Below are positions 6,604 through 61,517 of a DNA stretch of 64,000 nucleotides, in pieces. The notes below the pieces were generated by a model. It did no database searches. It was not told where the DNA came from and saw only the letters and a list, made by a program, of their open reading frames with translations. Position numbers and translations under genes: made by a program. Position 1 is the first letter of the stretch, and every line of letters begins with the position of its first letter. The DNA is from a candidate division WOR-3 bacterium (lineage in GTDB: Bacteria; Hydrothermota; UBA3073): NCBI GenBank assembly GCA_023129165.1, contig JAGMCL010000119.1:4714-68713 (forward strand), read 5' to 3'.

Positions 6604-6632
6604 TTGACATTTAAAAATTTTTATGTTATAAT
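6604..6632 (+). promoter_or_regulatory. consensus sigma70 promoter (TTGACA-17 nt-TATAAT)
   Basis: aacTTGACAtttaaaaatttttatgtTATAATgttgacgg. Both hexamers are perfect and the spacer is 17 nt. The promoter lies about 150 nt upstream of the small ORF at 6790. Confidence 0.5.
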
Positions 6633-6789
6633 GTTGACGGTTTATAAGATTTAAACTTGAAACTGTGGAGAATAAAACAAAATAACCATACTACGCACCC
6701 AGCGTCTTTCATTAGGAAGAAATACATAGGTACAGAAGATATCTGTTGTTAAGTTATTCATAAAACTATTAGTATTGAAGGAGGTGTGG

Positions 6790-7164
6790 ATGGCGAAGAA
6801 ATGGTCTGAAGAGGATATGGAATTTCTCAGGAGTAACTTTCTTTATATGAGCAATGGAGAGCTTGCTAAACACTTTGCAGTAACGAGAAAATCTATTGAG
6901 ACAAAGCTGCGACGTATGGGTTTAAAGAGAGGTGATAGATTACCGAGGAATAGGGTAGAGACTGGGAAAAACCTTTCAGCTGCACAGGAGGCAAGATTAA
7001 GAAAACTGGCAATTGGTTTGCTTGAATCTGGTTTGAAATCTTACTCTCGTGGTGAGAATAAGGAAGCCAAATGGCAGCTTGCTAAAGTTATAAGAGAATA
7101 TCCAGACATCGTAGATATTGTAAGTGTGGCAAAAGAATATATGCAAAAACTTGAAGCCAACTAA
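6790..7164 (+). CDS. small helix-turn-helix protein (GcrA-/Myb-like N-terminal pattern), hypothetical
   Basis: A GGAGGTG RBS lies 5 nt before the ATG at 6790. The ORF caller used an upstream TTG. The 125-aa product contains KWSEEDMEFLRSNFLYMSNGELAKHFAVTRKSIETKLRRMGL, which resembles the GcrA N-terminal DNA-binding helix pair. Confidence 0.4.
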   Translation: MAKKWSEEDMEFLRSNFLYMSNGELAKHFAVTRKSIETKLRRMGLKRGDRLPRNRVETGKNLSAAQEARLRKLAIGLLESGLKSYSRGENKEAKWQLAKVIREYPDIVDIVSVAKEYMQKLEAN

Positions 7165-17330: not shown

Positions 17331-18350
17331 TCAATCACCCTCATCGGTCTCTTTGCCCCTTAAAAGACCAAGTTTCTCCTTTATCCTACTCTCGATTTCA
17401 TCCCTCAACTCAGTATGTGAATAAAGATACTCAACTGCATTCTCTCTGCCCTGTCCAAGCCTTTCGTTACCATATGAAAACCATGTTCCTGATTTTGTTA
17501 CAATTTCCTCCTTCACACCAATATCAATGAGTTCTCCCTCCTTTGAAATCCCCTTACCAAACAGTATGTCAAATTCTGCATCCCTGAAAGGTGGAGCAAG
17601 TTTATTCTTTACCACCCTTACCAAAAGGTGATTCCCTATGCTCTGCTCACCCTTTTTTATTGAAGATACACGTCTAATATCCAGCCTTATAGATGCATGG
17701 AACTTTAAGGCAAGTCCCCCGGGAGTGGTCATCGGATTTCCAAATATAACCCCAATCTTCATCCTCTCCTGGTTTATGAATATAGTTGCTGTCTTGGATT
17801 TTGAAAGTACACCGGTGAGTTTTCTCAATGCCTGTGACATAAGCCTTGCCTGGAGTCCCATATGAGAATCACCCATATCACCCTCTATCTCTGCCCTTGG
17901 TACAAGTGCGGCGACAGAATCAATGACTATTATATCGGTAGCGCCACTCCTTGCAAGAGTCTCAGTAATTTCAAGTGCCTGCTCACCTGTATCAGGCTGG
18001 GATATTAATAGGTTATCCACATCAACTCCGAGATTCTTCGCATAAGTCGGATCAAGTGCATGCTCGGCATCAATGAATGCAGCCACACCACCTTTTTTCT
18101 GAGCCTCTGCCAACATATGAAGAGCAATCGTGGTCTTTCCTGAAGACTCAGGTCCAAATATCTCCATTACCCTGCCTCTCGGAATACCACCAATACCTAA
18201 AGCAAAATCAAGTGATATTGAGCCAGTTGGTATTGCATCTTCCTCCCATCTAACTTCTTTCTCGCCCAATCTCATAATGCTGCCCTTTCCAAATGTCTTT
18301 TCAATCTGTTGGATAGCATGTTCAAGGCTTTTTTTTCTCTCCTCCTCCAT
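17331..18350 (-). CDS. recA: recombinase RecA
   Basis: ...[15 protein letters not shown]...[16 protein letters not shown] (Walker A) ...IDAEHALDP...[17 protein letters not shown]... matches RecA over its full length. Confidence 0.95.
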
Positions 18351-27981: not shown

Positions 27982-28855
27982 CGGACAGGGACGAGCCCTG
28001 TGTCCCTACATTAATATCGTTTGTCAGGGTGTAGGGACAACCCTTGTGGTTGTCCGTTTATCGGACAGGGACGAGCCCCCTGTCCCTACATTGGGATTTC
28101 ATCCACCAAACCAGAATATGGGTAATCACTTGCATTTTCTACAATTCCTTTGCGTACTGGATTTTGTAATATATAGTCTACAATTTTAATCAGATTTTCA
28201 TCACTCCTTACAATGTGGTCATAAAAACGTCCCTGCCATAATTTACCTGTTCCCTTATACTTCCAGAATATATGGGTGGATTTACTCTTGAATGCCCCTA
28301 TAAACTGTGAAACTGATATCGGACAGGGACGAGCCCTGTCCCTACATTGGGATCGTTTGTCACGGTGTAGGGACAACCCTTGTGGTTGTCCGTGTTGTTG
28401 GACAAGATTGGGCATCAGAAGCAAGTGGAGGTGATCTGGCATAAGGGAGTAAACAAAAATCAAATATCCCATCCGTCTTCTCTCATAGAGCAAACATTCA
28501 ATAACGCCATTTGCAATGTCATAGTTTTCAAAATACGGAATTTTGTCTTTAGTGCAAATTGTTATTGAATAATGTCGTGCTTCACAATAATCAAATTCTT
28601 TGAGTCTTGGAGATTTTCGTTTTTTTAACTTATTTTTATCCATTACCGTACATTGTTGTGGAACAGATGTTGTAGGGACAACCCTTGTGGTTGTCCGTTT
28701 ATCGGACAGGGACGAGCCCCGTCCCTACATTGCACGAGTTTCGGATACATTGTTGTGAAACAGATGTTGTAGGGACAACCCTCCTACCTACCGTCAGGCA
28801 GGTGTGGTTGTCCGTCTATCTGACAGGGACGAGCCCTGTCCCTACATTGCACAAA
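27982..28855. mobile_element. REPtron: RAYT gene flanked by cognate REP/BIME arrays
   Basis: REP1 (GGACAGGGACGAGCCCTGTCCCTACATT) and REP2 (GTAGGGACAACCCTTGTGGTTGTCCG) occur as composite units. They lie left of the RAYT (27982-28095), inside it (28318-28390) and right of it (28648-28855, in two tandem composite units). Confidence 0.7.
28086..28643 (-). CDS. REP-associated tyrosine transposase (RAYT, IS200/IS605-like Y1 HuH transposase)
   Basis: YSLMPDHLHLLLMP carries the HuH motif. KLWQGRFYDHIVRSDENL...YILQNPVRKGIVENASDYPYSG carries the catalytic Tyr region. The ORF has an in-frame ~75-nt REP insert between the two motifs, and its stop codon lies inside a REP. Confidence 0.65.
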   Translation of the reverse strand: MDKNKLKKRKSPRLKEFDYCEARHYSITICTKDKIPYFENYDIANGVIECLLYERRRMGYLIFVYSLMPDHLHLLLMPNLVQQHGQPQGLSLHRDKRSQCRDRARPCPISVSQFIGAFKSKSTHIFWKYKGTGKLWQGRFYDHIVRSDENLIKIVDYILQNPVRKGIVENASDYPYSGLVDEIPM

Positions 28856-32015: not shown

Positions 32016-32040
32016 ATAAAAGGTAGTGGGAGGGGTTTTA
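32016..32040 (-). terminator. intrinsic terminator after paralog A
   Basis: GTGGGAGGGG-ttTTa-CCCCTCCCAC forms a 10-bp perfect stem. On the minus strand it is followed by uaCCUUUUAU. It lies between the stop of the 32062 gene and the RBS of the 31999 gene. Confidence 0.6.
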
Positions 32041-32061
32041 CCCCTCCCACTATTATCTCAT

Positions 32062-35000
32062 TTATTCAATAACAATCAATTTCTTTGTTGCTTTGAAGTT
32101 ACCAGCAGAGAGTTTATAGAAGTATATGCCTCTTGCAACCCTGTTACCTGCCTCATCCGTGAGGTTCCAATCAGCATTCTTGTATCCGGCTGTCTCTTCT
32201 CCACTTACAAGCGTCTTTACTACCCTTCCTGTTATATCATATACCATCAAATCAACTCTTGAGGCTTTTGGAAGTCCGTATGAAATACTCACTCTGCCCA
32301 TGGCAGGATTCGGATAACTCTGAGAAAGGAAGTATACCTCCGGTGCCTCATCAACAGCCATCTTTCCTCCACCAACTGTAACCTCTATCTCCATTACATT
32401 ATTATCATAAAGAATTGGTGGTTCAAACGCATTCTGTATAAAGGCACGTAACGTATAAGTATCCTCTGCAGGCACCCAGTCCGTTGAGAACCAGACAGTC
32501 CTTACGCCACGCGGCTCAAGGTTTCTTACATCTTCGGAACTCGAATAGACTATGTTACCTTCAGAATTAATTACCTTCATATATACCCTGAAATTCGCTA
32601 CAGGGCCAATCGGGTTGTTCTCAACTACGGCACATAGATGTACTGCTTGCCCCGGCTGTATCTCATCAAACCCGGGCTGGGAACATATACTATTAACCCA
32701 TGTATCATAGGGCATATGTCCGGTAAGACCTGAACCTGACACATCATCTATATACCAACCAGGATACGGAACAGAGGCATCGGAACCAAAATGCCACCTG
32801 ATAAAGAAGACATCACCTTCATTCACATAAGATGAAATGTCAAAATTTGCAATCTGCCATGAGGTCTCCGAACCTGTGTAACACGGTTCACCAGGAATAC
32901 CCTCATTATCGCTAGATGCTTCATCCTCTGGATAATCTCCATCCGGGTATATTATCTGCCAGGTAGTACCACCATCCGTAGATATCTTGACATTACCACC
33001 ATCAAAGTAACCCTCTATATCATACCAGTGATAGAAAGAGAGGACAGGCTCATCAGAGAGCGTGTAGAAGTCCTTTTCAAGTCTGTAGTCAGCATAGTCT
33101 TCATAATCACCAGCGAGTACCGTTGCCCAGAGATATTCTCCAGAATGGGCAGCACCAGGACCAGATGTTGGAGCACCCCACTGCCAGCCTATCGAACCGT
33201 TTTCATTATAGGCATCAAACCCACCATCAGTGACATCAAACCCTTCATACCAGCCATAGACCGAGAATACCATACTTAGTGTGTCGTTTAACGGATTGAC
33301 ATCTTCTGGACAGGATGCTATAGCAGTAGCAGTATACGTACCCTCAATGGCAAGCCATGTAGTAAATGCTACTGTGTCCCATACATTCGGTCCAACAGTT
33401 ACACTTACATCATCGTAGTATATGCTGCTGCCATTCTCGAACATCTCAAAACTGACCGGGAATATCTCCTGTGTATTACCCCTGTTTACAACCACTACCT
33501 GAGGAGTAATAATATCACCATCAGTAGCTCCTGCAGCCGGTGAGATGATGGCGTTTACCTCGACGTCGTGCTCAGGAACAATCACAGAAATACCGGTTCC
33601 CATAATATAATCAATATACCACTCGTCTGCATAATCACCCTCATATTTAATAGCTATATATCCTGATAGACCACTATATGCGGATAGATCAATGGGACCA
33701 TATAATGTCCAGGCTCCTGAACCAGCAGGTATTACCTCTACCTCGACAAAATCACCATCTGCAGGGTCCGGGCTTCCTGTTGATACCCACAGACCATGAT
33801 ACTCATAAAATGACCCATAATATTGATATTGATAGAACGATAGGTTAGCACCAGAACCAAATTCAAACAGAGGGCTAACAAACCAGTCTTCACAGTTATT
33901 GGAAACATCATCATCATCATGCCAGGCACCATAAGTCCCCTCATAAGGACCAGGGTCACCCCAACTGCCAGGAACGCCTGAGTAGTATAACTGCCACCCG
34001 TTATTGCCTGCAACATCTCCGGTCATGTATGTCTCCCAGCCATAGGGCGGCCAGTCGCCGGACTCAAAGTCCTCTACATAACTTATTGCACCAAATGTTG
34101 AAGTGGCTGTATCATTTGCAGGATTTTCGTCAATATCAAGGTCGGTATAGGAAATTGCCTCATATGAACCCTCTTCTACTGTAAAGTCCGGGAATACGAG
34201 TGTATCAATAACACCGGGTGAGAGTGTTGTATTTATCACCTCTGAATATATCTCAACCTCGGCACCATCATAAATCTTGAAATATGTGTCAAATGTCTCT
34301 GCATTAGCTCCAAAATTCTTTATCCTCGTTCTGGGAGCAACCACTGTACCTGCTGTGTATGTTCCTGATGGCTCGATTATCGAGAGAGCACCAACATCAT
34401 GTTCAGGTGGAGGACCATACTCAACAACACACCTAATTAGCCAGTCACCCTCTACGTCAGTATCTATAGCATAGACGCCATCATAATAATCCCAGGAACA
34501 TCCTGCAGGGGCATTAACCACTGCATCTATTCCAATACCGGGACAGTTTGGATAATTTCCTTCCTGGATATAGAAGATATAAAAATCACCATCGGATATT
34601 ACAATGTTTTCAGAAGTAAGGTCTTCATAGTTCCATGCCCCTCTGACTCCAGTCAGAACAGGGGAATCGTAAAGAACGGTTCCCGGAGCACCACCAGTCC
34701 CATCATCATCCAACAACCTCACCCTGTAATAATCACTACCTGGAGATGGCCAAGAGTCTGGATATAGGAATACGATACTACCGTTGATATTGGCTGGATA
34801 GGAGGTTGGTGTGAGTTTAAATCCCCAACCATTGCCACCATCATAATATGCCCATCCATTGTAATATACACCATCATCGTAATACAGTGTGTCTGGAGGA
34901 ATATAATCACTTACTTCAAATGCACCCTCAAGGGTGTCATTGGAAGGCTCCTCATCTCCAACAAGCCCCGTGTAGGCTAAGGTCGTATATGTACCAAGCA

Positions 35001-36018
35001 CAGTCGTATATGCAGCAAAGTCCACGGTCTGTGTTGCTCCTGAATTAACAGTAACAGACTGAGTCTCTGTATAAACCTCAGCCTCGGTATCATCAAATAT
35101 CTTGAATGTTGCATCGAATGTCTCATCATTACCACCGAAGTTCTCCACCTCTATACTCGGGGTAACAGATACATCTGGTAGATATGTGCCTACAGGTTCA
35201 TATATCGCTGTTACACCAACATCATGCTCTGCAAGATAACCCACCTCAATATCATCTATAATCCATATATACCACAATCCATCATTGGTTGGTCCATCCA
35301 CGGCCTGCCAGGCAAGCTTTATTGTCTGTCCTGCATATGCAGAAAGGTCTATAACATAGGGAAAATCCCATGCATTCCAGTCATTGCCTGTAAGGGTACT
35401 CAAATCAAGTAGAACATCCCACGTAGAACCCCCATCAGTAGACGCCTTGACATAATAGTGGTCAAAATTGGTCGAACCCTCGTATCCATATGTCCAGAAT
35501 GATACGTAATATGCACCTGAACCAGAACCAGTAAGTACAATATCAGACGTTATAATCCACTCATCCTGATGGTCATAGGACCACCACAAACCAGCTGCAT
35601 ATGTACCAGTATGCATATCATAGTCAGTTTGACTCCAGAACCCTGGAATAGACGCGCTCTGATCTGTGCAGGTCTGAATAAGTGTCCACCCTGTTGGCGG
35701 CCACGCTCCCTCAAAACCTTCAGTCAGTATCACTGCCTTCTCAGATTCACTGCGCGTGCCAATCACAGCCTCCGTCCTCTTTACCTCTGGACCCACATCA
35801 GCAGGATTCCTCGCTGTTCCTTTTGACTCGAACAAGGCAGGAGGAGCAGCCAACTTAACCTCTTGTCGGATACTCTCTGATGCCCTAATCTCTTCTTCTA
35901 ACTTCATCCTCTGTTCCAAAGGGAGTTTTGAAACCTCCTCACTTGTCATAGCAAAAAGAACTCCTGAAAATGCTACCAACGCTATGACCGCTGATACCAA
36001 CAATATCTTCCCCCTCAT
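32062..36018 (-). CDS. T9SS cargo protein, paralog A (MAM/CARDB-like repeats)
   Basis: 1318 aa. AAAGGAGG RBS. Signal peptide MRGKILLVSAVIALVAFSGVLFA. EGFEGAWPPTGW-type modules alternate with EHDVGVTAIYEPVGTY...VENFGGNDETFD CARDB-like modules. The C-terminus ...VDLMVYDITGRVVKTLVSGE...GIYFYKLSAGNFKATKKLIVIE is a T9SS CTD. Confidence 0.6.
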   Translation of the reverse strand: MRGKILLVSAVIALVAFSGVLFAMTSEEVSKLPLEQRMKLEEEIRASESIRQEVKLAAPPALFESKGTARNPADVGPEVKRTEAVIGTRSESEKAVILTEGFEGAWPPTGWTLIQTCTDQSASIPGFWSQTDYDMHTGTYAAGLWWSYDHQDEWIITSDIVLTGSGSGAYYVSFWTYGYEGSTNFDHYYVKASTDGGSTWDVLLDLSTLTGNDWNAWDFPYVIDLSAYAGQTIKLAWQAVDGPTNDGLWYIWIIDDIEVGYLAEHDVGVTAIYEPVGTYLPDVSVTPSIEVENFGGNDETFDATFKIFDDTEAEVYTETQSVTVNSGATQTVDFAAYTTVLGTYTTLAYTGLVGDEEPSNDTLEGAFEVSDYIPPDTLYYDDGVYYNGWAYYDGGNGWGFKLTPTSYPANINGSIVFLYPDSWPSPGSDYYRVRLLDDDGTGGAPGTVLYDSPVLTGVRGAWNYEDLTSENIVISDGDFYIFYIQEGNYPNCPGIGIDAVVNAPAGCSWDYYDGVYAIDTDVEGDWLIRCVVEYGPPPEHDVGALSIIEPSGTYTAGTVVAPRTRIKNFGANAETFDTYFKIYDGAEVEIYSEVINTTLSPGVIDTLVFPDFTVEEGSYEAISYTDLDIDENPANDTATSTFGAISYVEDFESGDWPPYGWETYMTGDVAGNNGWQLYYSGVPGSWGDPGPYEGTYGAWHDDDDVSNNCEDWFVSPLFEFGSGANLSFYQYQYYGSFYEYHGLWVSTGSPDPADGDFVEVEVIPAGSGAWTLYGPIDLSAYSGLSGYIAIKYEGDYADEWYIDYIMGTGISVIVPEHDVEVNAIISPAAGATDGDIITPQVVVVNRGNTQEIFPVSFEMFENGSSIYYDDVSVTVGPNVWDTVAFTTWLAIEGTYTATAIASCPEDVNPLNDTLSMVFSVYGWYEGFDVTDGGFDAYNENGSIGWQWGAPTSGPGAAHSGEYLWATVLAGDYEDYADYRLEKDFYTLSDEPVLSFYHWYDIEGYFDGGNVKISTDGGTTWQIIYPDGDYPEDEASSDNEGIPGEPCYTGSETSWQIANFDISSYVNEGDVFFIRWHFGSDASVPYPGWYIDDVSGSGLTGHMPYDTWVNSICSQPGFDEIQPGQAVHLCAVVENNPIGPVANFRVYMKVINSEGNIVYSSSEDVRNLEPRGVRTVWFSTDWVPAEDTYTLRAFIQNAFEPPILYDNNVMEIEVTVGGGKMAVDEAPEVYFLSQSYPNPAMGRVSISYGLPKASRVDLMVYDITGRVVKTLVSGEETAGYKNADWNLTDEAGNRVARGIYFYKLSAGNFKATKKLIVIE

Positions 36019-36388
36019 AAAACCTCCTTTCTTATACCTCGCATCAAATTTAAAAAAATATAATTATCGGGGTTAGGAAACCCCTCCTACATTATTACTA
36101 AAAATAAACATCTAATCGGGGTTAGGAAACCCCTCCTACATTATTATGTAAAAAATACCTACTTTGTAGGGCAAGGCTTTAGCCTTGCAAATCACAGCAA
36201 ACCTAAAGGTTTGCCCTACTTTGCGGTCTCTTTGAACTATTGCGAAAAATATCTCAATTCATAGAGCAGGGTTTTAGTCTCCTGCTTCGTAGGGCAAGGC
36301 TTTAGCCTTGCAACTCATAGCAAACCTAAAGGTTTGCCCTACAGTTTAAGATTATACCTATAATAAGAATAATTTTTTCCCTAAGTCA

Positions 36389-36420
36389 GGGTGGTGCTCC
36401 GTATATGCGGAGCACCACCC
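36389..36420. other. 13-bp perfect stem-loop 9 nt downstream of paralog B stop (possible terminator or stability element)
   Basis: GGGTGGTGCTCCG-tatatg-CGGAGCACCACCC. There is no uridine tract immediately 3' on the minus strand, so terminator status is uncertain. Confidence 0.4.
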
Positions 36421-36429
36421 GCTAAGATT

Positions 36430-39400
36430 CTACCTCATAACTACCATCTTCTTTATAGATTTGAAATCGCCTGCATTGAATTCATAGAAGTATATACCTG
36501 ATGCAATCTCTCTACCGGTGTTATCCTTCATATCCCAGTTAGCTGTGTAGTAACCAGCCTCCTTCGTCGCATTCACAAGTGTCTTCACAACCCTACCCGA
36601 AATGTCAAACACCCTTATGGTCACATCAGAAGTCCTTGGAATCGCATAACTTATAGACGTGTTCTTCCTCACAGGATTGGGTGCATTCTGATGAAGTGCA
36701 AATACCTTCGGCAACTCATCCACAGCCATCTTTGCACCACTACCAATGTAAAGGTCTAATGTCATTGCATTGTTCCAGAGAATCGGGTCAACAAACGCCG
36801 TCTGGATAGTTACGGCAATAGTATACAATCCCGGTTCATTAAGAACGACATCACCTGAGAAATATACTGTATCAGATGTGGATGCAGGAAGGTTCATAAC
36901 GTCATACACCCTTCTCCAGTAGATGTTTCCATCCTTATGAATCTTGTAGATGACCCTGAATGATAGGGTTGGACCACCTAACGGACTGTTGTTTGATACT
37001 ACCGCAGTTGGGTGTAATAAGGCACCTTGAGGTAGTGTGTCAACCCTTTCATCAACTATTATATCATCTACTGAGACATCATAAGGAATTTTCGGCTCAA
37101 GATTTATTCCGATTATATCATCGAGATACCACTCATCAGCATAGTCACCCTGATAGACAAAGGAGATGTATATCTGCTCGCCAACATAATCACAGAGGTT
37201 TACGGGACCATAAATAGTCCAGTCAGAAGGAGCTACGTCGGTCTCTTCTATTTCTTCGAAATCATCATCAGGAACACCGCTTCCTTCAGACACCCAGAGA
37301 CCATGATATTCATAGGAAGACCCGAAGTAGTTTTTCTGATAGAAGTAGATGTGTGCATCATCTCCCACCTGATATGCAGGCGTAACCAGCCAATCATCAC
37401 AATTATCAGAAACATTGTCATCATTGTGCCATGCGCCGTAATCACCGATTGGGTCACCATGTGAGCTGGATGCACCTGAATAGAACTGCTGCCAGCCATT
37501 GTTTGCATCACCAAGCTGGTAGTCAGCCCAACCAGGAGCGTGCCATACACCATCCTCGAAATCCTCTATCCAGGATGCAACTATACATCCCTCGGTCAGG
37601 GTGTCATTATTATAGAAGGTATCACTCGCAAGTATCGTATAGGCTGTGACGTCATATGAACCTGCTAATGCAGTCCAATCAGGGAATACCACATCAAGTG
37701 TAGCCTCTGCATCTACAATAACAGTCTGAACCTCCTCATAGACCTGGCGGTCACCATTACATTCAAAGGATGGGTCAATAATAAACGTTACATCAAAGGT
37801 ATCTGTAACAGGACCAAAGTTCTCAACTACAACCTCTGGAGCTACTATATCTCCATCTCCCACAACACCTACAGGAACAACTATATCCGCAACTCCTACA
37901 TCATGCGAAGGTACAAATGCCTCAACACCAACACCAGCAAAATCGTCTAAATGCCAGCCTGGATAGTAACCTGCACTTCCGTCACTCCTGAAATGCCAGT
38001 TCAGAAGGAAAAGATCACCGCTGCCCACATAATCCGAAAGGTAAAACCCTTCAAGCTCCCAGAATCCCTGATTACGTCCTGTAAAGAGGGACTCATAATC
38101 ACAGGCTGAATAACCAACATTATCGTATCCCCCCATAGGAGATATTACTGTCCAGCTTCCGCCATCATCAGTTGAGAGTTTTACATTCCCTCCGTCCCAT
38201 TTATTTTCTGTGTCATACCAATGCCAGAAATATAGAATTGGATTGTCAGAAAGGGCAATAAACTTTCTTATAAGACTGAAATCGGCATCATCATCATAAT
38301 CACCTGCAAGGTTTGTTGCCCATACATTCTCACCTGAATGGGCATTAGCAGGACCCTCAGGGTTTGTAGGTATACCCCACTGCCATCCTATAAAACCATC
38401 ATCAAGAATCGCCTCAAATCCACCATCATCCTCCTCAAGGTCTTCTGACCATTCTACTACTGAAAATTCACCCCATATAGAATCGTTTGATGGATTCTCA
38501 TCTTCAGCAAGAGCAGTATAGGCAAGGGTAGTATATGAACCACCTGTTGCGGCAAATGGGTCAGTAAAATCAACCGTGTCCATAAGACCTGATGCCAATG
38601 TAACAGTTTCTGTACAAGTATAATCCTGTTTGGCACCCCAGATCTGGAACGTGACAGGGAATGTCTCCTCATTTGCTCCGACGTTCTTAACCACGACCTG
38701 AGGATACACATCTCCTGCATCTACCAATTCCTCTGGCGCCAGTATTTCATGCACTCCCACATCGTGGTCAGGTACAATCACTGAAATCCCGGTTCCCATA
38801 ATATAATCAATATACCAGTGGTCGGCGAAGTCGCCCTCATACTTAAATGCAATATATCCGCTCAGGCCACTATAGTCAGATAGGTCAACAGGTCCATATA
38901 GTTCCCATACATATGGGTCAACTGGTGGAACCACATCAACCTCTACAAAGTCACCATCTGCAGGGTCGGGACTACCAGTCGATACCCAGATACCATGATA
39001 CACATAAAAGCCTCCAAAATATTCATTGTGATAGAATGACAAAGAGGCGCCCGGGTCGAATGAAAATAGTGGTGAAACAAGCCAATCCTCGCAATTGTCT
39101 GTAACATTGTCGTCCTGATGCCATGCACCAAAGTTACCCTCATAGGGAAGGCAATCTGGATAATCAGGACATCCGTCATAAAGGGACTGCCACCCATGGT
39201 TATCTGCAACATCTCCAGTCATATATGTCTCCCAGCCATAGGGTGGCCAATCGCCTGACTCAAAGTCCTCTACATAACTTATTGCACCAAATGTCGAATA
39301 GGCTGTATCATTTGCAGGATTTTCATCAATATCAAGGTCAGTATAGGAAATTGCCTCATATGAACCCTCTTCTACTGTAAAGTCGGGGAATACCAACGTA

Positions 39401-41235
39401 TCCATAACACCGGGTGAGAGTGTTGTATTAATCACCTCTGAATATATCTCATCCTTGGCGCCGTCAAATATCTTGAAGTAGGTATCAAACGTCTCTGCAT
39501 TAGCTCCAAAATTCTTTATCCTCGTTCTGGGAGCAACCACTGTGCCTGCTGTGTATGTTCCTGATGGTTCGATTATCGAGAGAGCACCAACATCGTGTTC
39601 AGGTGGGGGACCATACTCAACAACACACCGTAGAAGCCAGTCACCCTCTACGTCAGTATCTATAGCATAGACACCACTAAGATATTCCCAGGAACATCCT
39701 GCAGGGGCATTCACTGCTGCATCTATTCCAATACCGGGACAGTTTGGATAATTTCCCTCCTGTATATAGAAGATATAAAAATCACCATCGGGTATTACAA
39801 TATTTTCAGAAGCAAGGTCTTCGTAGTTCCATGCCCCTCTTACTCCAGTCAGAACAGGGGAATCGTAAAGAACGGTTCCCGGAGCACCACCAGTCCCATC
39901 ATCATCCAACAACCTCACCCTGTAATAATTACTACCTGGATCGGGCCAAGAGTCTGGATATAGGAATACGATACTACCGTTGATATTAGCTGGATAGGAG
40001 GTTGGTGTGAGTTTAAATCCCCAACCATTGCCACCATCATAATATGCCCATCCGTTGTCATATAAACCATCATCGTAATACAGTGTGTCTGGAGGAATAT
40101 AATCACTTACATCAAATGCACCCTCAAGGGTGTCATTGGAAGGCTCCTCATCTCCTACAAGCTCTGTATATGCCAGGGTTGTATATGAACCAAGCACAGT
40201 TGTAAATGCTGTGAAGTCCACAGTCTGTGTTGCTCCTGAATTAACCGTAACAGACTGAGTCTCTGAATATATCTCATCCTTGGTTCCGTTAAATATCTTG
40301 AATGTTGCATCGAATGTATCATCATTACCACCGAAGTTCTCCACCTCTATACTCGGGGTAACAGATACATCAGGTAGATATGTGCCCACAGGTTCATATA
40401 TCGCTGTTACACCAACATCATGTTCTGCAGGATAACCCACCTCAATATCATCTATAAACCAGACATACCACAGCCCATCATTGGTCGGCCCATCCACAGC
40501 ATGCCAGGCAAGCTCAATGGTCTGACCTGCATATGCAGAAAGGTCAATAACATATGGATATGCCCAATAATTCCAGGCATTCCCTGGAAGCGCACTCATA
40601 TCCAAAAGCTCATCCCAGCTTGCTCCACCATCAGTTGACGCCTTTACATAATAGTGGTCAAAATTGGTCGAACCCTCGTATCCATATGTCCAGAATGATA
40701 CATAATATGTACCAGAGGCAGAACCAGTAAGATTAATATCCAGAGTTAAAAGCCATTCATCCTGATGGTTATACGACCACCATAATCCAGCATTATATGT
40801 ACCTGAGTGAACACCAATTGGTGGCGAACCTGCTGAGCCATCAGTTTGGGTCCAGTAACCAGGAGTCGGGCCACTTACATCAGTACACGTCTGAATTACA
40901 CTCCATCCTGTAGGTGGCCAGGCACCCTCAAAACCCTCAGCTACTAATACAGCCTTCTCAGATTCAGAACGTGTCCCAATCACAGCTTCCCTTATCCTCA
41001 CTTCTGGAGTTATATCAGCAGGATTCCTCGCTGTTCCTTTTGACTCGAACAAGGCAGGAGGAGCAGCCAACTTAACCTCTTGTTGGATACTCTCTGATGC
41101 CCTAATCTCTTCTTCTAACTTCATCCTCTGTTCCAAAGGGAGTTTTGAAACCTCCTCACTTGTCATAGCAAAAAGAACTCCTGAAAAGGCTACCAACGCT
41201 ATGACCGCTGATACCAACAATATCTTCCCCCTCAT
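36430..41235 (-). CDS. T9SS cargo protein, paralog B (MAM/CARDB-like repeats)
   Basis: 1601 aa. The first ~900 aa are about 90% identical to paralog A, including the first 50 residues. The C-terminus ...VTIRVFDISGRVVKTLVNAT...GIYFYEFNAGDFKSIKKMVVMR is a T9SS CTD. Confidence 0.6.
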   Translation of the reverse strand: MRGKILLVSAVIALVAFSGVLFAMTSEEVSKLPLEQRMKLEEEIRASESIQQEVKLAAPPALFESKGTARNPADITPEVRIREAVIGTRSESEKAVLVAEGFEGAWPPTGWSVIQTCTDVSGPTPGYWTQTDGSAGSPPIGVHSGTYNAGLWWSYNHQDEWLLTLDINLTGSASGTYYVSFWTYGYEGSTNFDHYYVKASTDGGASWDELLDMSALPGNAWNYWAYPYVIDLSAYAGQTIELAWHAVDGPTNDGLWYVWFIDDIEVGYPAEHDVGVTAIYEPVGTYLPDVSVTPSIEVENFGGNDDTFDATFKIFNGTKDEIYSETQSVTVNSGATQTVDFTAFTTVLGSYTTLAYTELVGDEEPSNDTLEGAFDVSDYIPPDTLYYDDGLYDNGWAYYDGGNGWGFKLTPTSYPANINGSIVFLYPDSWPDPGSNYYRVRLLDDDGTGGAPGTVLYDSPVLTGVRGAWNYEDLASENIVIPDGDFYIFYIQEGNYPNCPGIGIDAAVNAPAGCSWEYLSGVYAIDTDVEGDWLLRCVVEYGPPPEHDVGALSIIEPSGTYTAGTVVAPRTRIKNFGANAETFDTYFKIFDGAKDEIYSEVINTTLSPGVMDTLVFPDFTVEEGSYEAISYTDLDIDENPANDTAYSTFGAISYVEDFESGDWPPYGWETYMTGDVADNHGWQSLYDGCPDYPDCLPYEGNFGAWHQDDNVTDNCEDWLVSPLFSFDPGASLSFYHNEYFGGFYVYHGIWVSTGSPDPADGDFVEVDVVPPVDPYVWELYGPVDLSDYSGLSGYIAFKYEGDFADHWYIDYIMGTGISVIVPDHDVGVHEILAPEELVDAGDVYPQVVVKNVGANEETFPVTFQIWGAKQDYTCTETVTLASGLMDTVDFTDPFAATGGSYTTLAYTALAEDENPSNDSIWGEFSVVEWSEDLEEDDGGFEAILDDGFIGWQWGIPTNPEGPANAHSGENVWATNLAGDYDDDADFSLIRKFIALSDNPILYFWHWYDTENKWDGGNVKLSTDDGGSWTVISPMGGYDNVGYSACDYESLFTGRNQGFWELEGFYLSDYVGSGDLFLLNWHFRSDGSAGYYPGWHLDDFAGVGVEAFVPSHDVGVADIVVPVGVVGDGDIVAPEVVVENFGPVTDTFDVTFIIDPSFECNGDRQVYEEVQTVIVDAEATLDVVFPDWTALAGSYDVTAYTILASDTFYNNDTLTEGCIVASWIEDFEDGVWHAPGWADYQLGDANNGWQQFYSGASSSHGDPIGDYGAWHNDDNVSDNCDDWLVTPAYQVGDDAHIYFYQKNYFGSSYEYHGLWVSEGSGVPDDDFEEIEETDVAPSDWTIYGPVNLCDYVGEQIYISFVYQGDYADEWYLDDIIGINLEPKIPYDVSVDDIIVDERVDTLPQGALLHPTAVVSNNSPLGGPTLSFRVIYKIHKDGNIYWRRVYDVMNLPASTSDTVYFSGDVVLNEPGLYTIAVTIQTAFVDPILWNNAMTLDLYIGSGAKMAVDELPKVFALHQNAPNPVRKNTSISYAIPRTSDVTIRVFDISGRVVKTLVNATKEAGYYTANWDMKDNTGREIASGIYFYEFNAGDFKSIKKMVVMR

Positions 41236-41436
41236 AAAACCTCCTTTCTTATACCTCGCATCAAATATAAAAAATATAATTATCGGGGTTGGGAAACCCC
41301 TCCTACATCGTTACTACAAATAAACATCTAATCGGGGTTGGGAAACCCCTCCTACATCGTTACGCAAAAAATACCTACTTCGTAGGGCAAGGCTTCAGCC
41401 TTGCGATTAAGCAAACCTGAAGGTTTGCCCTACATT

Positions 41437-43286: not shown

Positions 43287-44789
43287 TTACTTCTCCTCAA
43301 ACTTCTTCTCAATTTCCTTTTCAATTGCCTCTTCAATTACTGCAAACACTACCCTTCTGTTCTCTATACCAGATATTCCAGGTCCTGTCCTATCCGAAAG
43401 AAGCTCTTTCTCACCCAAACCAACTGTAATTATCTTATCCGGAGCTATACCATAACCTACCAATATGTCTCTTACAGCCTCTGCCCTTTTTATAGAAAGC
43501 CTTATATTTGCCTCCCCACTGCCTGCCTTATCACAGTGTCCCTCTATTGTCACAACCTTATCAGCATAGTATGTCTTTATAAGTCTCGCTGCCTCAGAGA
43601 CTTGTGCATATTCCTCTTTCGGTACCACAGAGTTTCCATAGACAAAGTGAATGTTTAAAAGGTGCAGAAGTTCGTCAGGGGTAATGTATGTTTTCAGGGA
43701 CGTCTCAAGGATACCCTTCAACTCCTCTATATCCATCTTAATATCAGTGATATCCATCATTATCTGCTCATGGTCACTGAGCAGTCTATCATACTGCTCA
43801 TCCTCAATAAGAACCTTGATTGGACCGGCATCCCTTGGCCTACCGAAACCAAATGAGAGACTGAGACGATGGTCTACCTCAGAACTCACCTCTTCTCCCC
43901 AATCCCTGTATGCATAATCAAGCTGGAATGCACCAACCTTTACACCTGCACCGTATGAAATATTCATTCCACTCTCGTCTGCATTGTTCCAATCATATCC
44001 ACCTGCATAGCCTGCACGCAGTGCAAGAACATCTACAACCCAGAGTTCTCCACCAAGGTTGTACCTCATGCCGCCATCAAGTGGATAGTTTATATCAACT
44101 GCTGTATTAAGTGCGAAAATGGAGAGATTCGGGAATTGCAGCGTGAATCCACTCTTCACATTCAGGGGCTGGTCAAATGCATCATTCATAAACTTAACCT
44201 GTGTGCCAAAATTCTGCATACATACACCAATACTGAATAACACATTGCCATTTGCAAAGGCTATAGGTGGAACGAGCAGACCGATATCTCCAGCAACTGC
44301 AGTAGCCGTATAACCAGCATAGTCGAAGTATAAAAACTTTCCATTCAACCCAAGTGCAAAATACTTATGGAATCTACCACTATATCCCAGGATACCCCCC
44401 ATGGAATAGGATTTTACTGTTCCCTCATAGACGCCATTAGTCATTTTCCGAATATCACCCTCATTGAAATACAGAATTCCCACACCAATCGTGCCCAGCC
44501 CAGATGGAAAACCCAAAGACAGAAATGTCTGATAGGTATCCATGAGATACTGATTGTGGCTGGTAGAGATACTTGGTCTATTTAAAAATGCAAGCGTTGC
44601 AGGGTTATACAATAGACCATTGACATCCCCGGTAAGACATGAAAATGCATCTCCCATCCCCATAGGTCTAGCACTTACCGGTATCTCAAACGGCGTAACC
44701 AGGCGAGTTCCGGCATCTTCACCCGGCGTGAATGAGAACGCGGTGAGCGGGATGATGAGGATGAGACCTGTCAAAAGCAACCACCTCAT
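43287..44789 (-). CDS. PorP/SprF(PorV)-like outer-membrane beta-barrel fused to C-terminal OmpA peptidoglycan-binding domain
   Basis: Signal peptide MRWLLLTGLILIIPLTAFS. PVSARPMGMGDAFSCLTGDVNGLLYNPATLAF matches the N-terminal motif of the PorP/SprF/PorV families. The C-terminus EGHCDKAGSGEANIRLSIKRAEAVRDILVGYGIAPDKIITVGLGEKEL...NRRVVF is OmpA-like. The gene lies directly downstream of the giant T9SS cargo gene. Confidence 0.6.
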   Translation of the reverse strand: MRWLLLTGLILIIPLTAFSFTPGEDAGTRLVTPFEIPVSARPMGMGDAFSCLTGDVNGLLYNPATLAFLNRPSISTSHNQYLMDTYQTFLSLGFPSGLGTIGVGILYFNEGDIRKMTNGVYEGTVKSYSMGGILGYSGRFHKYFALGLNGKFLYFDYAGYTATAVAGDIGLLVPPIAFANGNVLFSIGVCMQNFGTQVKFMNDAFDQPLNVKSGFTLQFPNLSIFALNTAVDINYPLDGGMRYNLGGELWVVDVLALRAGYAGGYDWNNADESGMNISYGAGVKVGAFQLDYAYRDWGEEVSSEVDHRLSLSFGFGRPRDAGPIKVLIEDEQYDRLLSDHEQIMMDITDIKMDIEELKGILETSLKTYITPDELLHLLNIHFVYGNSVVPKEEYAQVSEAARLIKTYYADKVVTIEGHCDKAGSGEANIRLSIKRAEAVRDILVGYGIAPDKIITVGLGEKELLSDRTGPGISGIENRRVVFAVIEEAIEKEIEKKFEEK

Positions 44790-44855: not shown

Positions 44856-47800
44856 TTATCTAATAACCAGAATCTTATCCTTAAGAACCTTAACTTCGTC
44901 GTTTATCTTAGTACTCACAAGTATAACGTACATACCGGAAGCCACCTTCTTACCCTCGTCGTTATCCAGCTCCCATGTATATGTCCAGGTAGGCACATTA
45001 TCACCCTTGTACTTGGGTGTCTCCATTGCCACCTTATACCGTACAATCTCACCTGCGAGGTTAAAGATGGTGAGCCCGGGGTCTGCATCATCATCACCCT
45101 TACACCTTATCGTTACCTTGGTTCCAGTAACCGGGTTCTCATCGTATGTGAGCTCAGTCTCAGATGTTACGGTGAGTTTAACAACAGCCTCATATGAAGG
45201 CATTCCATCCTTCTCATCTCTCACCTCAAACATACCTGTAAAGACACCCTCCATTGTGAACTTAGGAATGTCCACAGACATAAGTACTCGTTCAGAACCA
45301 CCGATGCCAAGTGTGTCTACAACAGGATAGGTGAACTTGACCCTGTCTCTTGAAATTACCGTACCAGATACATCCTCAAGGTCAGTCAGCATAATGAGCT
45401 CAAGGTCTGTTAGAATGACGTTACCCAGGTTGAGAACACTGAAGTACTCCGAACCTGTTGTGCCTTCTCTACCAGTAACCCCAAGTGTGTCAACAGAGAG
45501 CGCGACTATCTCGTCGGGCAGCACGGTAACATTAAGGGTAAAGGAGTCGCTCACAACTTCATTCTTCTCGCCACCACTGTATTCAAGTACAACCCATCCA
45601 GTATATACACCTTCATTCTGGTCTTCAGGTATCGAAACAGTAAGCGCTCCAATTGTATAGCTTCCATATTCGACGTCATAATTCCTCGGGTCAAACTCTA
45701 CTGTAAAGTCTTCAAGTCCGTTCACCCTACTTGCTATACATGTCAGGTCTACATTACCAACACCAATCGGGTTCTTGATTACGAAGTGAGTTTCAGGTGT
45801 TGTGGTTCCTACATCACCAACAACATACATTGTATTCTCAACAAGGTTGCCCTCGTTGTCGGCAATATGGAAGTATGGTGATTCCGCCACCGTGAGGATT
45901 ACCCTCACTGTGTCAGAGACAGAACCACTTCCGTTTATGGCAGTAACAAGCCCTGAATATGTTGTGGCATAAGTTCCTACAGGTATATGTATAACCGCAT
46001 GTGCCGTGGTATATGTGCCGGATTCAAGCGAGGATATATTGTCAGGCTCGAAGTCAATGTTGTCTTTTGAGATGAACCTCGTACCGCCAGCGTTGAAGAG
46101 ATTGTCCGCAACAAAGTGGATACCATATAGTGTGGTGTTCCCAGGACCATCTGGATCCGGATTGTTGGCAAGGTCTGTGCTGTAAACAGTGAAGTCAGGT
46201 GTTGCCTTAGTAGAACCATGTTCGACATCACCTGCTATCTCAACCGAAGCCTCAGCAATGTCAAGGTCCTCGGTCTCGTTCACAACAAGTCTCACCAAAA
46301 TCCCGTCGTCAACACCTTCGTTGCCAAAGACCGTAATCCAGCCTTCGTATGTCCCAGCTGCTACATCTTCGGGTATTTCAACTGAGACCGGAGCATCCTC
46401 ACCGCCGCCAGAGACAATAAATCCTGGCAGATCAACCAATACATCCTCAGCAGGTATAACATTGTCTATCTTGGTGCCTCTGCCGTATGTTGATTCGACG
46501 TACTCGGCTACTCCACCCTTACCATCCTTTGCTGGACCACCAACAAAGACAAGGTCCTCTACCTTGTAAGACAGCTCATCGAGGTCTGCGTTTCCAAAGG
46601 GATCAGGATCAAAATTAGTTACCTCTGAATTGGGATTGATAATCCTGAACATCCCACCAAGAACCTCACCAATGTCTCCAGCTCCGATATCAAGAACATT
46701 CCTTACGATATCAAGGTCATATGAAGGATTAACGGTAAGCACAACCGTCTGAGTAACAAGCGGATGGCCATCATCGTCCTTCACAGTTATCGTAGCCTCG
46801 TAATCTCCCGTATATGTACCAGCTGGTACGAATACATTAATATTAATTGCATCACTCGTAGCACCAGGACCAAGTATGCTTATTTCAGTAGGATCGAAGG
46901 TCACATTAAGAACTGGTATGACATATGAGCCGTATACGAAGTTCGTAGAGGTGAATATAATATGGTCAAGTATATTGTTGCCTGTGTTGGTCACAGTGAA
47001 GCTGGTTGTTCCTACAAGTCCGTGATCCGTACTGAAGTCTGCAGGATCTGTCATTGTCAGACCCTCAACAGCCTCAACAGTTAGAACGACATCAAAGCTG
47101 TCACCCGTATCATCCTCCTCAGGTGATGTCACTGTTGCCGTTCCAGTGTATATACCCTCAATCTGACCCTCAGGTATGTTAACAGTGTAAGTAATCACAA
47201 CTGAACTACCTGAAGCAAGATTTGTGGGTGAACTTATCGCTGTTGGCACAATGTCAGCACCAGGACCTGTAAGATTACTCAATGTGTACGTTAGATTCGT
47301 AAGATCGGCATTCCCAAACATATCCGGGTCAATGTTCATCGCCTCGGAGTTCGGGTTGACGAGTAAGAACTCAGCCATTACGGTATTACCTGGTATCTCT
47401 ATAAGAGACATTGTATTACCCACGAGGTTCTGCTCGTTGTCAGATATATCAAGGTCATAGGAAGGATTGACGGTAATGATAATAGTAACCTCGTCAGAGA
47501 CAGAACCCTCACCGTTCTTCGCCGTTATCGTTCCCTTATATATACCTGTAAGGATTCCGAGAGGTATATCAACAGTAACTCCTATCTCATAAGTCTCTTC
47601 TGGTTCAATTTCGGCAATGTTCTCAGGTATAAATGTAATACCCTCTTTCGGAATTACATTATCAAATTCATCATAAAGGTTGGTTGAAGTAAAGTTAATT
47701 CCAGTAAGTTTAACATTGCCGGTGTTTGTTATATTAAACACTATATCACCAACGTTAGTGCCGTGGTCACCTGCTCCAGATATATCATCCTCATCTATGT

Positions 47801-61076: not shown

Positions 61077-61517
61077 CTTCTTACCTCCAACCTTTTCCAA
61101 CATACCTACCTCCTTTCTTTCGCGTTTAATTTTAAATATTACTCTTGTTCTCCATACATTTAATATTCTCTGAAAAGATATGGGACTTAAACCATCATTC
61201 AACATATTCCCCCCTTATTGCTGCAATATAGAAATAATAAAAATCCATATACACATATATTCTCACATATGCGGTGAGCATCTTAATAATTATGTCTACT
61301 TTTGCTACCGTCAAAAAAATTACTTGCACGTATAAATATAATATCAAATATTTTATGATTTGTCAAGAAAAAAGTATAATTTTTATAAAAAGTTAAAATT
61401 TAGTACAAATACAATACTGCAAACGCTTTTTGTGTAATATATCATAAATTCCAATACCTTTTTATCTCAAAAACCCTTAAAATCTTACAATTTTAGAGGG
61501 TAAGTGCGAGGTAATAC

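Follow-up and report, generated by a model that had tools for sequence, protein, structure and literature searches.

The locus lies within a 64,000-nucleotide stretch of a contig from a candidate division WOR-3 bacterium (the window) and consists of two adjacent genes, A and B. Gene A (32062-36018) encodes a protein of 1318 aa and gene B (36430-41235) one of 1601 aa. Both are complete open reading frames on the minus strand, and B is 283 aa longer, as the first-pass annotation had described. The domains, leaders, hairpins downstream of the genes, and sequence tracts discussed below are all given for the minus strand. The two proteins are similar beyond chance (BLASTP E = 0), and their identity at 50 of 50 N-terminal residues is confirmed. 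Direct DNA repeats between the genes have offsets of 5196, 5216, and 5217, and the 63-aa shadow open reading frames at 34719-34910 and 39915-40106 are present, in line with the repeat offset of 5196-5217 bp originally reported. The earlier figure of about 90% identity over some 900 aa captures the high similarity but overstates its reach: amino acid identity is 88.9% across residues 1-650, 85.2% across residues 1-830, and only 81.7% across residues 1-900. Similarly, near-identity of the leaders and first 2.7 kb is borne out for a collinear leader tract of 136 nt (92% identity, 36053-36188 versus 41269-41404) but not for the 5' DNA as a whole, which is 86% identical across 2.69 kb by blastn and forms a mosaic in which 60-nt windows range from 45% to 100% identity. 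A repeat search found no partial copies of either gene within the window, and nothing between 30 and 43 kb besides the paralogous blocks and REP (repetitive extragenic palindromic) elements. All sequences compared are short-read metagenome assemblies, and the comparison includes only four related lineages.

Judged from sequence, A and B are modular cargo proteins of a type IX secretion system (T9SS), and their secretion and attachment are predicted. Gene A encodes, in order, a signal peptide and linker, choice-of-anchor J domain 1 (CAJ1), CARDB1, module X, CARDB2, CAJ2, CARDB3, a MAM-like domain, CARDB-like domain 4, and a T9SS type A C-terminal sorting domain (CTD); Pfam matches to PF18962, PF13860, and PF20773 support this architecture. 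Both proteins exceed the cut-offs of NF038128 choice_anch_J (A, 104.6 bits in 2 stretches; B, 133.9 bits in 3 stretches; cut-off 30 bits) and TIGR04183 (44.3 and 40.1 bits; cut-off 23 bits), and also of PF18962 (38.9 and 32.6 bits; cut-off 27 bits). The family name of NF038128 describes a domain and not a function. The CTDs, matched by both PF18962 and TIGR04183, lie at 32071-32316 in A (PF18962 at aa 1235-1316) and 36439-36681 in B (aa 1519-1599). Gene B follows the same plan with one additional module pair, CARDB4 and CAJ3 (aa 1109-1384, 37084-37911), which explains its excess of 283 aa. CAJ3 is 48% identical to CAJ2 of B, and the pair constitutes one 275-aa period of an internal repeat (825-nt DNA period). 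This pair is the sole difference in domain content, so the earlier statement that the 3' portions differ in content holds to that extent; they are otherwise collinear homologues with approximately 46-49% amino acid identity.

A high-confidence structural model of CAJ1 and CARDB1 of A (aa 98-370, 34909-35727) has folds matching the gingipain K1 adhesin, MAM, and CARDB. At the level of the model, this confirms that the CAJ fold is a jelly roll of the MAM or cleaved-adhesin-like type. CARDB modules score below the gathering threshold of PF07705 (the best, B aa 825-907, reaches 19.6 bits against a cut-off of 22.7), and this model has no match on the isolated CARDB modules; they nevertheless have the CARDB fold. 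Module X (A aa 371-538, 34405-34908) is an uncharacterised beta-sandwich domain that lacks a Pfam or NCBIfam model. The jelly-roll domains are presumably binding modules, or heads, held between CARDB Ig-like spacers, and A and B may bind surfaces. Inspection of the N-terminus reveals a candidate Sec signal peptide (MRGKILLVSAVIALVAFSGVLFA) with visible n-, h-, and c-regions. Four further CTD-bearing genes adjoin the pair, as does a gene for a PorV/PorQ-family protein located two genes upstream (NF033709, 147 bits; cut-off 90). PorK/L/M/N, Sov, and PorU are absent from the 64-kb window.

Each gene is preceded by a strongly folding leader. The leader of A occupies the B-A intergenic region (36019-36429; RNA fold z-score -5.0) and contains the terminator-like hairpin of B (36389-36420), two inverted REP pairs (36281-36342 and 36158-36219), and two direct GTAG hairpins (36118-36139 and 36069-36090), after which comes a conserved AAGGAGG ribosome-binding site. 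The leader of B (41236-41436; z-score -6.0) carries one inverted REP pair (41382-41433) and two direct GTAG hairpins (41334-41355 and 41285-41306), and its ribosome-binding site and promoter-proximal sequence match those of A. These elements were located in the sequence by motif searches (0 expected by chance for the leader of A) and a GTAG-plus-palindrome scan. A further terminator-like hairpin stands 3' of A (32024-32052). REP elements are known to be mobilised by REP-associated tyrosine transposases in REPIN / RAYT systems (Bertels & Rainey 2011, PMC3116915). The A and B leaders resemble these systems in bearing inverted pairs of GTAG-plus-palindrome units, and 4 kb away lies a RAYT gene (NF047646, 91 bits; cut-off 80) that has similar GTAGGG REP pairs on its flanks. 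They depart from a simple REPIN / RAYT pairing in that the leader REP class (GTAGGGCAA...) differs from the RAYT-flanking class (GTAGGGAC...). The leader class occurs only 5' of A and B in the window, and also 5' of A in the WOR-3 assembly binchicken_co89_570.

Three other WOR-3 assemblies contain separate orthologues for the 3' part of A and for that of B, with identities of 63-100% between A genes, 62-78% between B genes, and 35-46% between A and B. At 216 aligned C-terminal sites, the corresponding values are 63-70%, 62-78%, and 35-46%. The gene order giant protein, PorV-OmpA, 584-aa protein, B, A recurs in WOR-3 JGI_Cruoil_03_44_89 (Cruoil) and binchicken_co89_570, and the B orthologue of Cruoil also has the 283-aa extra segment (61% identity). 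At least three WOR-3 lineages, each of which keeps the tandem pair in synteny, diverged only after A and B had split. The N-terminus of B has a different history. In Cruoil and binchicken_co89_570, B begins with a propeller-like module of approximately 230 aa that is missing from the window and has left no trace there; at the same place, B here carries A-type CAJ1, CARDB1, and module X. B is thus a chimera comprising an A-type 5' segment of 545 aa and a B-type remainder.

Within the 5' part, the two genes share tracts of very different ages. Synonymous divergence between them (dS) amounts to 0.03 over codons 1-60 and to 0.05-0.10 over codons 361-480, and reaches 0.65-0.84 in some other 5' tracts. 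We compared A, B, and gene A of WOR-3 CSMAG_2245, the closest A orthologue, at 747 three-way informative sites. These sites make up 130 runs, whereas none of 10,000 shuffles gave fewer than 425, and they form blocks at codons 36-68, 78-264, 369-571, and 575 to beyond 880; two block edges, at codons 264 and 369, coincide with domain boundaries. The youngest shared tract spans position -31 to codon 74 (35797-36049 in A, 41014-41266 in B). It contains identical runs of 78, 103, and 70 nt with a dS of 0.03, and A and B differ at only 2 of its 253 positions (41188 and 35867). A second shared tract, covering module X and the start of CARDB2 (A codons 369-571, 34306-34912), is 88-98% identical to B 39502-40108 at an offset of 5196, with approximately 245 consecutive informative sites at which A equals B and a dS of 0.05-0.30. 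Compared with the module at the same position in three other A orthologues, these codons of A have only 35-57% DNA and 17-30% protein identity.

The intervening block behaves differently in the two genes. In B, codons 78-271 (the end of the linker and CAJ1, 40423-41004) are mostly 95-100% identical to CSMAG_2245 gene A in the three-way DNA comparison and 40-92% identical to A here in 60-nt windows; B also matches CSMAG_2245 gene A at the informative sites of codons 78-264. The genome baseline identity is only 85-91%. This stretch of B is an A-type segment that now resides inside it. In A, codons 78-264 (35227-35785) hold a divergent CAJ1 allele that is roughly equidistant from every known orthologue (58-88%) and may have come from a third donor. 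No donor for this allele or for module X was found within the window. The CSMAG_2245 contig begins 31 nt upstream of A and its B orthologue was not recovered, so the direction of the recent tracts cannot be fixed.

We consider it probable, at roughly 75%, that A and B are ancient tandem paralogues subject to repeated non-allelic gene conversion, together with probable exchange between strains. Gene conversion at the 5' end had been proposed from the first reading, and that proposal is upheld: the paralogues predate the lineage split, their shared tracts are discrete and non-random and alternate against the closest orthologue, and across the 5' part paralogues within a genome are closer to each other than to orthologues, third codon positions included. 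In the first 141 nt of coding sequence, for example, paralogue identity is 0.99 here (0.98 at third positions) and 0.89 in Cruoil (0.81 at third positions), while identity between lineages is 0.70-0.83. On this reading, the 5' similarity would derive from repeated non-reciprocal homologous recombination between A and B rather than from a young duplication, with anchors in the conserved CARDB spacers and in the leader and signal-peptide sequence common to both genes. In one event in this lineage, an A-type linker, CAJ1, CARDB1, and module X, together approximately 1.6 kb, would have taken the place of the original N-terminal module of B. Later and shorter tracts would have passed between the copies over codons 369-571 and over the stretch from the leader to codon 74. 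At least one segment, the CAJ1 allele of A, would stem from a third donor in the form of a different strain or paralogue, as would, probably, module X. Overall, expression and export signals would be homogenised and the exposed part of the protein reshuffled module by module. The sequence comparisons establish the domain architecture, the old age of the duplication, the tract mosaic, and the chimeric make-up of B; the recombination mechanism, the direction of each event, and any selective benefit are proposals of ours that the mosaic suggests.

The mosaic might alternatively have arisen for the most part through alleles exchanged among strains, via transformation or horizontal transfer and subsequent homologous recombination at the locus, with intragenomic conversion between A and B playing a minor part. 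Identity of B to CSMAG_2245 gene A is 95-100% in most windows of codons 70-300 and only 85-91% in the nearby genome, which argues for inter-strain transfer rather than purely intragenomic conversion of that block. The donorless CAJ1 allele and module X of A point the same way, as do fragments from other strains that bear yet other modules at the same position. The youngest tracts (leader to codon 74, and module X), however, unite A with its own neighbour B and are not shared with any other lineage, and 5' homogenisation is lineage-specific in two lineages. Strain exchange as the main source is therefore unlikely. It is compatible with intragenomic conversion, and repeated conversion with probable strain exchange, the explanation we favour, takes in both.

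Assembly error deserves attention at a locus such as this, which the first-pass annotation rightly flagged as hazardous: contigs break at or inside the A and B genes in four other assemblies. The window differs from the ENA version of the scaffold at 9 positions, 7 of which lie in shared tracts, and in all 7 the base of one paralogue is replaced by that of the other (binomial P approximately 6e-4, or 7e-3 when counted as events), a pattern that would fit continuing exchange between the genes as well as ambiguity in the sequence. At 41188 and 35867, the ENA version has the opposite paralogue's base, and at a cluster of five bases in B (39930, 39941-39943, and 39988) it has the base of gene A. 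Identical runs between A and B extend to 103 nt here and approximately 250 nt in the ENA version. An assembler that switched copies or strains inside shared k-mers might thus have generated the mosaic or the A-type 5' end of B, and some block boundaries could have been created or moved by bubble resolution between strains or copies. Against an artefact as the explanation, no shared block is the same in both copies (2-15% difference), so two distinct molecules per block were present in the sample. The structure of B would also require several coordinated path switches, the window holds no trace of its ancestral N-terminal module, and Cruoil provides an independent case of concerted 5' evolution, represented in three separate assemblies. 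We regard such an origin as quite improbable. For metagenome-assembled genomes in general, contigs at this locus break or may be chimeric, and long reads are needed before cargo gene content can be compared reliably.

The original interpretation included a recent duplication. Taken as a whole-gene tandem event, in which the 5' ends are still similar and the 3' ends have diverged rapidly under diversifying selection, it would account for the high 5' identity, the duplicated leaders, and the tandem arrangement, but is contradicted by the separate 3' orthologues of A and B in the same order in three other assemblies, by retention of B's additional module pair in Cruoil, and by the different N-terminal module of B in two other assemblies. 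Furthermore, dS in the 3' part is saturated at 1.2-2.8 with dN/dS of 0.24-0.56, and dN/dS is below 0.6 in every A/B window, giving no signal of positive selection. The 3' divergence is that of old paralogy, and the modules being swapped sit in the proximal, N-terminal half of the proteins and not, as had been supposed, in the distal half. We consider a recent duplication highly improbable. Strong purifying selection on the N-terminal half without recombination fits the 64-83% conservation of the signal peptide and first ~45 aa across the whole family, but is scarcely credible given near-identical synonymous sites (dS 0.03-0.10, third-position identity 0.98), paralogues that are more similar than orthologues, and non-homologous 5' module content of B in other lineages.

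Two established classes of variation system were also considered and rejected. Cassette-type antigenic variation does not apply to two complete open reading frames that each have the same ribosome-binding site and leader and their own downstream hairpin. A diversity-generating retroelement (DGR) was dismissed on finding no reverse transcriptase among the scanned open reading frames of at least 150 aa, and the only repeats at 30-43 kb, the paralogous blocks and REP elements, include no template/variable repeat pair. We also entertain, as a doubtful extension of the conversion reading, that the A/B locus and the flanking island genes form a dedicated module-exchange hotspot in WOR-3. Built-in recombination anchors would be provided by the conserved CARDB spacers and by the leaders, which are rich in REP elements and fold strongly. 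Through them, head domains from either neighbour or from other strains would be swapped into and out of two co-expressed T9SS surface proteins, and the REP elements and RAYT might stimulate breaks. If this were true, the outcome would be surface variation at the population level, for instance against grazers or phage, achieved by means other than silent cassettes or DGRs.

The closest parallel is found in the kgp, rgpA, and hagA genes of Porphyromonas gingivalis, which are paralogues with long common repeats that disrupt short-read assemblies, and which diversify through rearrangement of domains, allelic exchange, and gene conversion, yielding mosaics that do not follow the phylogeny of the strains (Dashper et al. 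2017, PMC5266723). Recombination between A and B resembles this pattern, and acts on domains of the same fold. Unlike the P. gingivalis genes, A and B lack a protease domain, are adjacent in tandem rather than dispersed, share their 5' end and leader rather than a 3' adhesin region, alternate their heads with CARDB spacers, and belong to an uncultured WOR-3 bacterium rather than to Bacteroidota. Pfam Cleaved_Adhesin has no match in A or B, and matches the gene downstream of A in Cruoil and binchicken_co89_570. Concerted evolution and gene conversion are also familiar from other bacterial surface-protein paralogues, such as Neisseria opa and Treponema tpr. A and B are similar to these families in having young, discrete homogenised tracts within old paralogues, conflicting phylogenies along the gene, and products predicted to be surface-exposed. 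They differ in comprising only two complete and apparently expressed copies, in lacking a silent cassette archive or phase-variable repeat, and in exchanging sequence at the scale of whole domains. The shuffling of surface proteins in this way is neither a new mechanism nor the opening of a long-standing question; what the locus adds is that module shuffling between paralogous T9SS adhesin-like genes, best known from the gingipain/HagA genes, extends to the uncultured candidate phylum WOR-3. The leader peptide (MTSEE...KLP...EEEIR) with the alternating CARDB architecture was recovered only from a few WOR-3-type assemblies. Homologues of the CAJ domain, at 45-68% identity, are numerous in Cloacimonadota, Marinimicrobia, Bacteroidota, and WOR-3.

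Gene A (32062-36018) and gene B (36430-41235) are adjacent minus-strand genes for large modular T9SS cargo proteins, with ORFs of 1318 and 1601 aa. The similarity between them is real and far beyond chance. BLASTP aligns the two proteins at 74% identity across 1119 residues, and global alignment gives 88.9% identity over A residues 1-650, 85.2% over 1-830 and 81.7% over 1-900, with the remainder at ~46-49%. The first-pass annotation had put the likeness at about 90% over 900 aa and had called the 5' 2.7 kb near-identical. Both statements are overstated, as the shared 5' DNA, leader included, aligns over a span of 2.69 kb at 86% identity and ranges from 45% to 100% in 60-nt windows. The leaders, the regions upstream of each gene, are indeed alike, with 136 collinear nt at 92% identity. 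Other details of that annotation were borne out: residues 1-50 are identical in the global alignment, direct repeats occur at offsets of 5196, 5216 and 5217 bp, both shadow ORFs it named are present (63 aa each), and the extra ~283 aa of B form a single block that A lacks.

Both proteins match the choice-of-anchor J (CAJ) model NF038128, and their C-terminal sorting domains match TIGR04183 and PF18962 (overlapping PF13860, FlgD_ig), in each case above curated cut-offs. Cutting A at the recurrent motif P-[ED]-H-D-V-G yields modules of ~165 aa alternating with modules of ~108 aa. An N-terminal leader (aa 1-97), with a signal peptide at its start assigned by inspection only, is followed by CAJ1 (98-262), the Ig-like spacer CARDB1 (263-370), an uncharacterised module shared by A and B that we call module X (371-538), CARDB2 (539-646), CAJ2 (647-815), CARDB3 (816-922), a MAM-like domain (923-1100; PF20773, E 7e-8), a CARDB-like module (1101-1232) and then the sorting domain. 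B has the same module order plus an additional pair, CARDB4 and CAJ3, at aa 1109-1384. Within B, CAJ3 and CAJ2 share 48% identity, the four CARDB modules are 38-49% identical pairwise, and the internal DNA period of 825 nt equals one CARDB and CAJ pair. The likenesses listed for the modules are reelin subrepeats and MAM domains. No catalytic domain was detected in A or B, and a PDB sequence search with A gave no match at E <= 0.01. Module X matches nothing in Pfam or NCBIfam, yet it is widespread: at E <= 1e-3 it has 510 cluster representatives. Its structural model is an all-beta sandwich that resembles PHR domains, phage tail domains and CBM-like jelly rolls. With a pLDDT of 65, confidence in this model is only moderate, and we take its fold matches as pointing to a putative "beta-sandwich, binding-module-like" domain, with no closer assignment.

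The 5' parts of A and B form a mosaic. We class the two genes as old tandem paralogues whose 5' ends have probably undergone gene conversion and module exchange repeatedly. dS between A and B is 0.03 in codons 1-60, 0.65-0.84 in codons 61-240, 0.05-0.10 in codons 361-480 and 0.27-0.30 in codons 481-660, and dN/dS along the similar 5' part is 0.08-0.41. A three-way DNA comparison with the closest A orthologue, from the WOR-3 relative CSMAG_2245 (locus L007), delineates the blocks. All three genes are identical at codons -10 to 30. A then equals B at codons 30-70 (98-100%; CSMAG_2245 gene 45-77%), B equals the CSMAG_2245 gene at codons 70-300 (mostly 95-100%; A 40-92%), A equals the CSMAG_2245 gene at codons 303-323 (100%), A again equals B at codons 363-540 (80-98%; CSMAG_2245 gene 35-57%), and A equals the CSMAG_2245 gene from codon 579 onward (89-100%). 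At codons 363-540 the CSMAG_2245 gene has the module type of the A genes in WOR-3 JGI_Cruoil_03_44_89 (Cruoil) and the MAG binchicken_co89_570. The 747 informative sites fall into 130 runs, against a minimum of 425 in 10,000 shuffles, and the block edges at codons 264 and 369 are domain boundaries. Over the first 141 coding nt, the paralogues are 0.99 identical in the window genome (third positions 0.98), 0.89 in Cruoil (third positions 0.81) and 0.72 in binchicken_co89_570; cross-lineage pairs lie at 0.70-0.83. The gene conversion first proposed for the 5' end is supported by the low dS of codons 1-60 and by paralogues that are closer within the genome than across lineages, and the pattern bears the classical marks of concerted evolution of the 5' end within individual lineages.

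Part of this pattern could also arise during assembly. The window corresponds to ENA scaffold ZHAN22-2_SAMN18200505_METAG-scaffold_51, another deposited version, from which it differs at 9 of 23,957 positions. Seven of the nine, at 35867, 39930, 39941-39943, 39988 and 41188, lie in tracts shared by A and B (binomial P ~6e-4, or ~7e-3 with adjacent changes taken as one event), and at all seven the ENA base is that of the other paralogue. These seven may mark conversion tracts that are polymorphic in the population, or they may come from cross-mapping during consensus building; to a lesser degree, this caveat also holds for the boundaries of the mosaic blocks. The remaining two differences (41647 and 41665) are synonymous and lie in the 583-aa cargo gene. 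Two real copies exist: A and B show differences along their whole length and have separate sets of orthologues. The suspicion that the locus is an assembly hazard was well founded, as contigs break at or within A and B in other assemblies. The CSMAG_2245 contig begins 31 nt upstream of A, contigs from the Cruoil sample begin 145-149 nt before A in both the JGI and NCBI assemblies, the NCBI assembly has the A gene on two contigs, and two other MAGs hold B only as contigs of 1.6-1.8 kb. In practice, MAG-based comparisons of the A/B locus call for caution.

A metagenome-wide scan for the locus yielded only two loci and a genome scan only five, short of population scale; the closest named relatives of the window are candidate division WOR-3 MAGs. 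The gene order of Cruoil matches that of the window, with the giant protein, PorV-OmpA and proteins of 584, 1346 and 1332 aa, and binchicken_co89_570 also has this order, with B on two contigs and then A. Across 216 aligned C-terminal sites, A orthologues are 63-70% identical to one another and B orthologues 62-78%, as against 35-46% between A and B; the grouping rests on these identity matrices and not on neighbour-joining bootstrap values. The final residues also sort by type, ...KKLIVIE-like in A and ...KKMVVMR-like in B, and the additional module pair of B is present in Cruoil B at 61% identity. The recent duplication proposed in the first-pass annotation is rejected, because A- and B-type 3' parts each have orthologues in other WOR-3 assemblies and dS between window A and B is saturated past codon ~660. 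Together with the shared gene order and the conserved module pair, these data show that the A/B split is older than these WOR-3 lineages.

Window B itself appears to be a chimera. In Cruoil and binchicken_co89_570, B has an N-terminal module of ~230 aa between the leader peptide and CARDB2 (L001 5728-6456; L010 ~6380-7100), with weak DUF5074 and glutamine-cyclotransferase-like (beta-propeller) matches. This module is absent from the window, where B instead has an A-type linker, CAJ1, CARDB1 and module X. With these in its place, the first ~545 aa of window B are A-type, and from the join at CARDB2 the protein is B-type; the lengths agree with this (1601 - 545 is about 1346 - 297). In the window lineage, B has probably lost the ~230-aa module. 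The module is rare in the protein database, where a search with it gave four distant matches. That search missed Cruoil B itself, and so says nothing about the module's presence in the source sample. Some 5' blocks appear to need a third donor. The CAJ1 allele of A is about equidistant from every known orthologue, and module X occurs in no other A orthologue, nor in B of Cruoil or binchicken_co89_570. The identity of B's CAJ1 block to CSMAG_2245 A exceeds that between the two genomes, whose flanking genes are only 85-91% identical, and suggests exchange between strains besides A/B conversion. In two further MAGs, partial orthologues of B have a MAM-like module at the position taken by CAJ2 in window B. 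Neither a diversity-generating retroelement (DGR; no reverse transcriptase among scanned ORFs of at least 150 aa) nor silent-cassette variation (A and B are both complete ORFs, each with its own leader) was retained as an explanation.

Among described systems, the kgp/rgpA/hagA genes of P. gingivalis come closest. They encode T9SS cargo in which jelly-roll adhesin domains are arrayed, and their paralogous repeats, at which short-read assemblies break, are subject to domain rearrangement, gene conversion and allelic exchange (PMC5266723). A and B resemble this group in predicted secretion route, domain fold and evolutionary behaviour. They differ from it in having no protease domain, in being two genes in tandem, in a homogenised part that comprises the 5' end and leader, in head domains that alternate with CARDB spacers, and in belonging to another phylum (WOR-3). 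Our literature search, within one searchable library, found no paper connecting WOR-3 with T9SS.

A and B belong to a minus-strand island of T9SS cargo genes, in the order 5449-aa giant, PorV/PorQ-OmpA, 583-aa cargo, B, A, 1048-aa cargo, RAYT and 1180-aa cargo. The giant protein (44856-61205, minus strand) contains a bacterial TSP3 repeat and faint GH123_N and NPCBM-associated matches, and by inspection its C-terminus resembles the sorting domains of neighbouring cargo. Its Cruoil orthologue has 4173 aa, so its size differs by more than 1200 aa between lineages. The PorV/PorQ-family outer-membrane barrel (43287-44789, minus strand; NF033709, 147 bits) carries a C-terminal OmpA peptidoglycan-binding domain, and the synteny of this fusion gene is kept in Cruoil and binchicken_co89_570. 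The 1048-aa cargo protein, after A, has LTD and CAJ domains. Between A and its 1047-aa gene, CSMAG_2245 carries a further T9SS cargo gene, of 901 aa (L007 4177-6882); the window has none there, and island gene content thus varies between close relatives. recA (17331-18350, minus strand) lies ~14 kb from the pair and is relevant only as a sign of homologous recombination machinery.

Each of A and B has a separate leader, and a hairpin follows each gene. Both leaders harbour REP-like elements, in which a palindrome comes after GTAG. An inverted, REPIN-like pair, GTAGGGCAAACCTTTAGGTTTGC / GTAGGGCAAGGCTTTAGCCTTGC, lies before A (36158-36219 and 36281-36342) and before B (41382-41433), and within the window is found only there. 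It also precedes A in binchicken_co89_570 (L005 1017-1070); the Cruoil leaders lack it and have different palindromes, CCTGCCTACCG...GACAGGCAGG. Each leader further holds a couple of direct GTAGGAGGGGTTTCC[T/C]AACCCC GTAG hairpins 49 nt apart (36066-36140 and 41282-41356, minus strand). Both copies read AATAATG...TCCT in leader A and AACGATG...TCCC in leader B, and because the two tandem copies share these three leader-specific bases, they would imply homogenisation within each leader, independent of exchange between A and B. As expected of palindromic repeats, the leaders fold far better than shuffles (z-scores -5 and -6). At gathering thresholds, Rfam finds two tRNAs only in the whole window and no family matching the leaders, and a sigma-70 scan gave 34 promoter matches against 28 expected from shuffles, which is not above expectation, and no promoter was called. 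A short motif, GAGACTAAAACC[C/T]TGCTCTAT, occurs in the otherwise unalignable A leaders of the window (36240-36275, minus strand) and Cruoil (L001 ~9718-9745). The gene for a REP-associated tyrosine transposase (RAYT; 28086-28643, minus strand) matches PF01797 and NF047646 (91 bits; cut-off 80). Palindromic GTAGGGAC...GTCCCTAC REP pairs surround it (28031-28089, 28321-28391, 28672-28728 and 28822-28845), in agreement with the known REPIN/RAYT association (PMC3116915). One pair of the GTAGGGAC type apparently lies inside the RAYT gene, and CSMAG_2245 has a 185-aa ORF, the length of RAYT, at the same place (L007 10278-10835).
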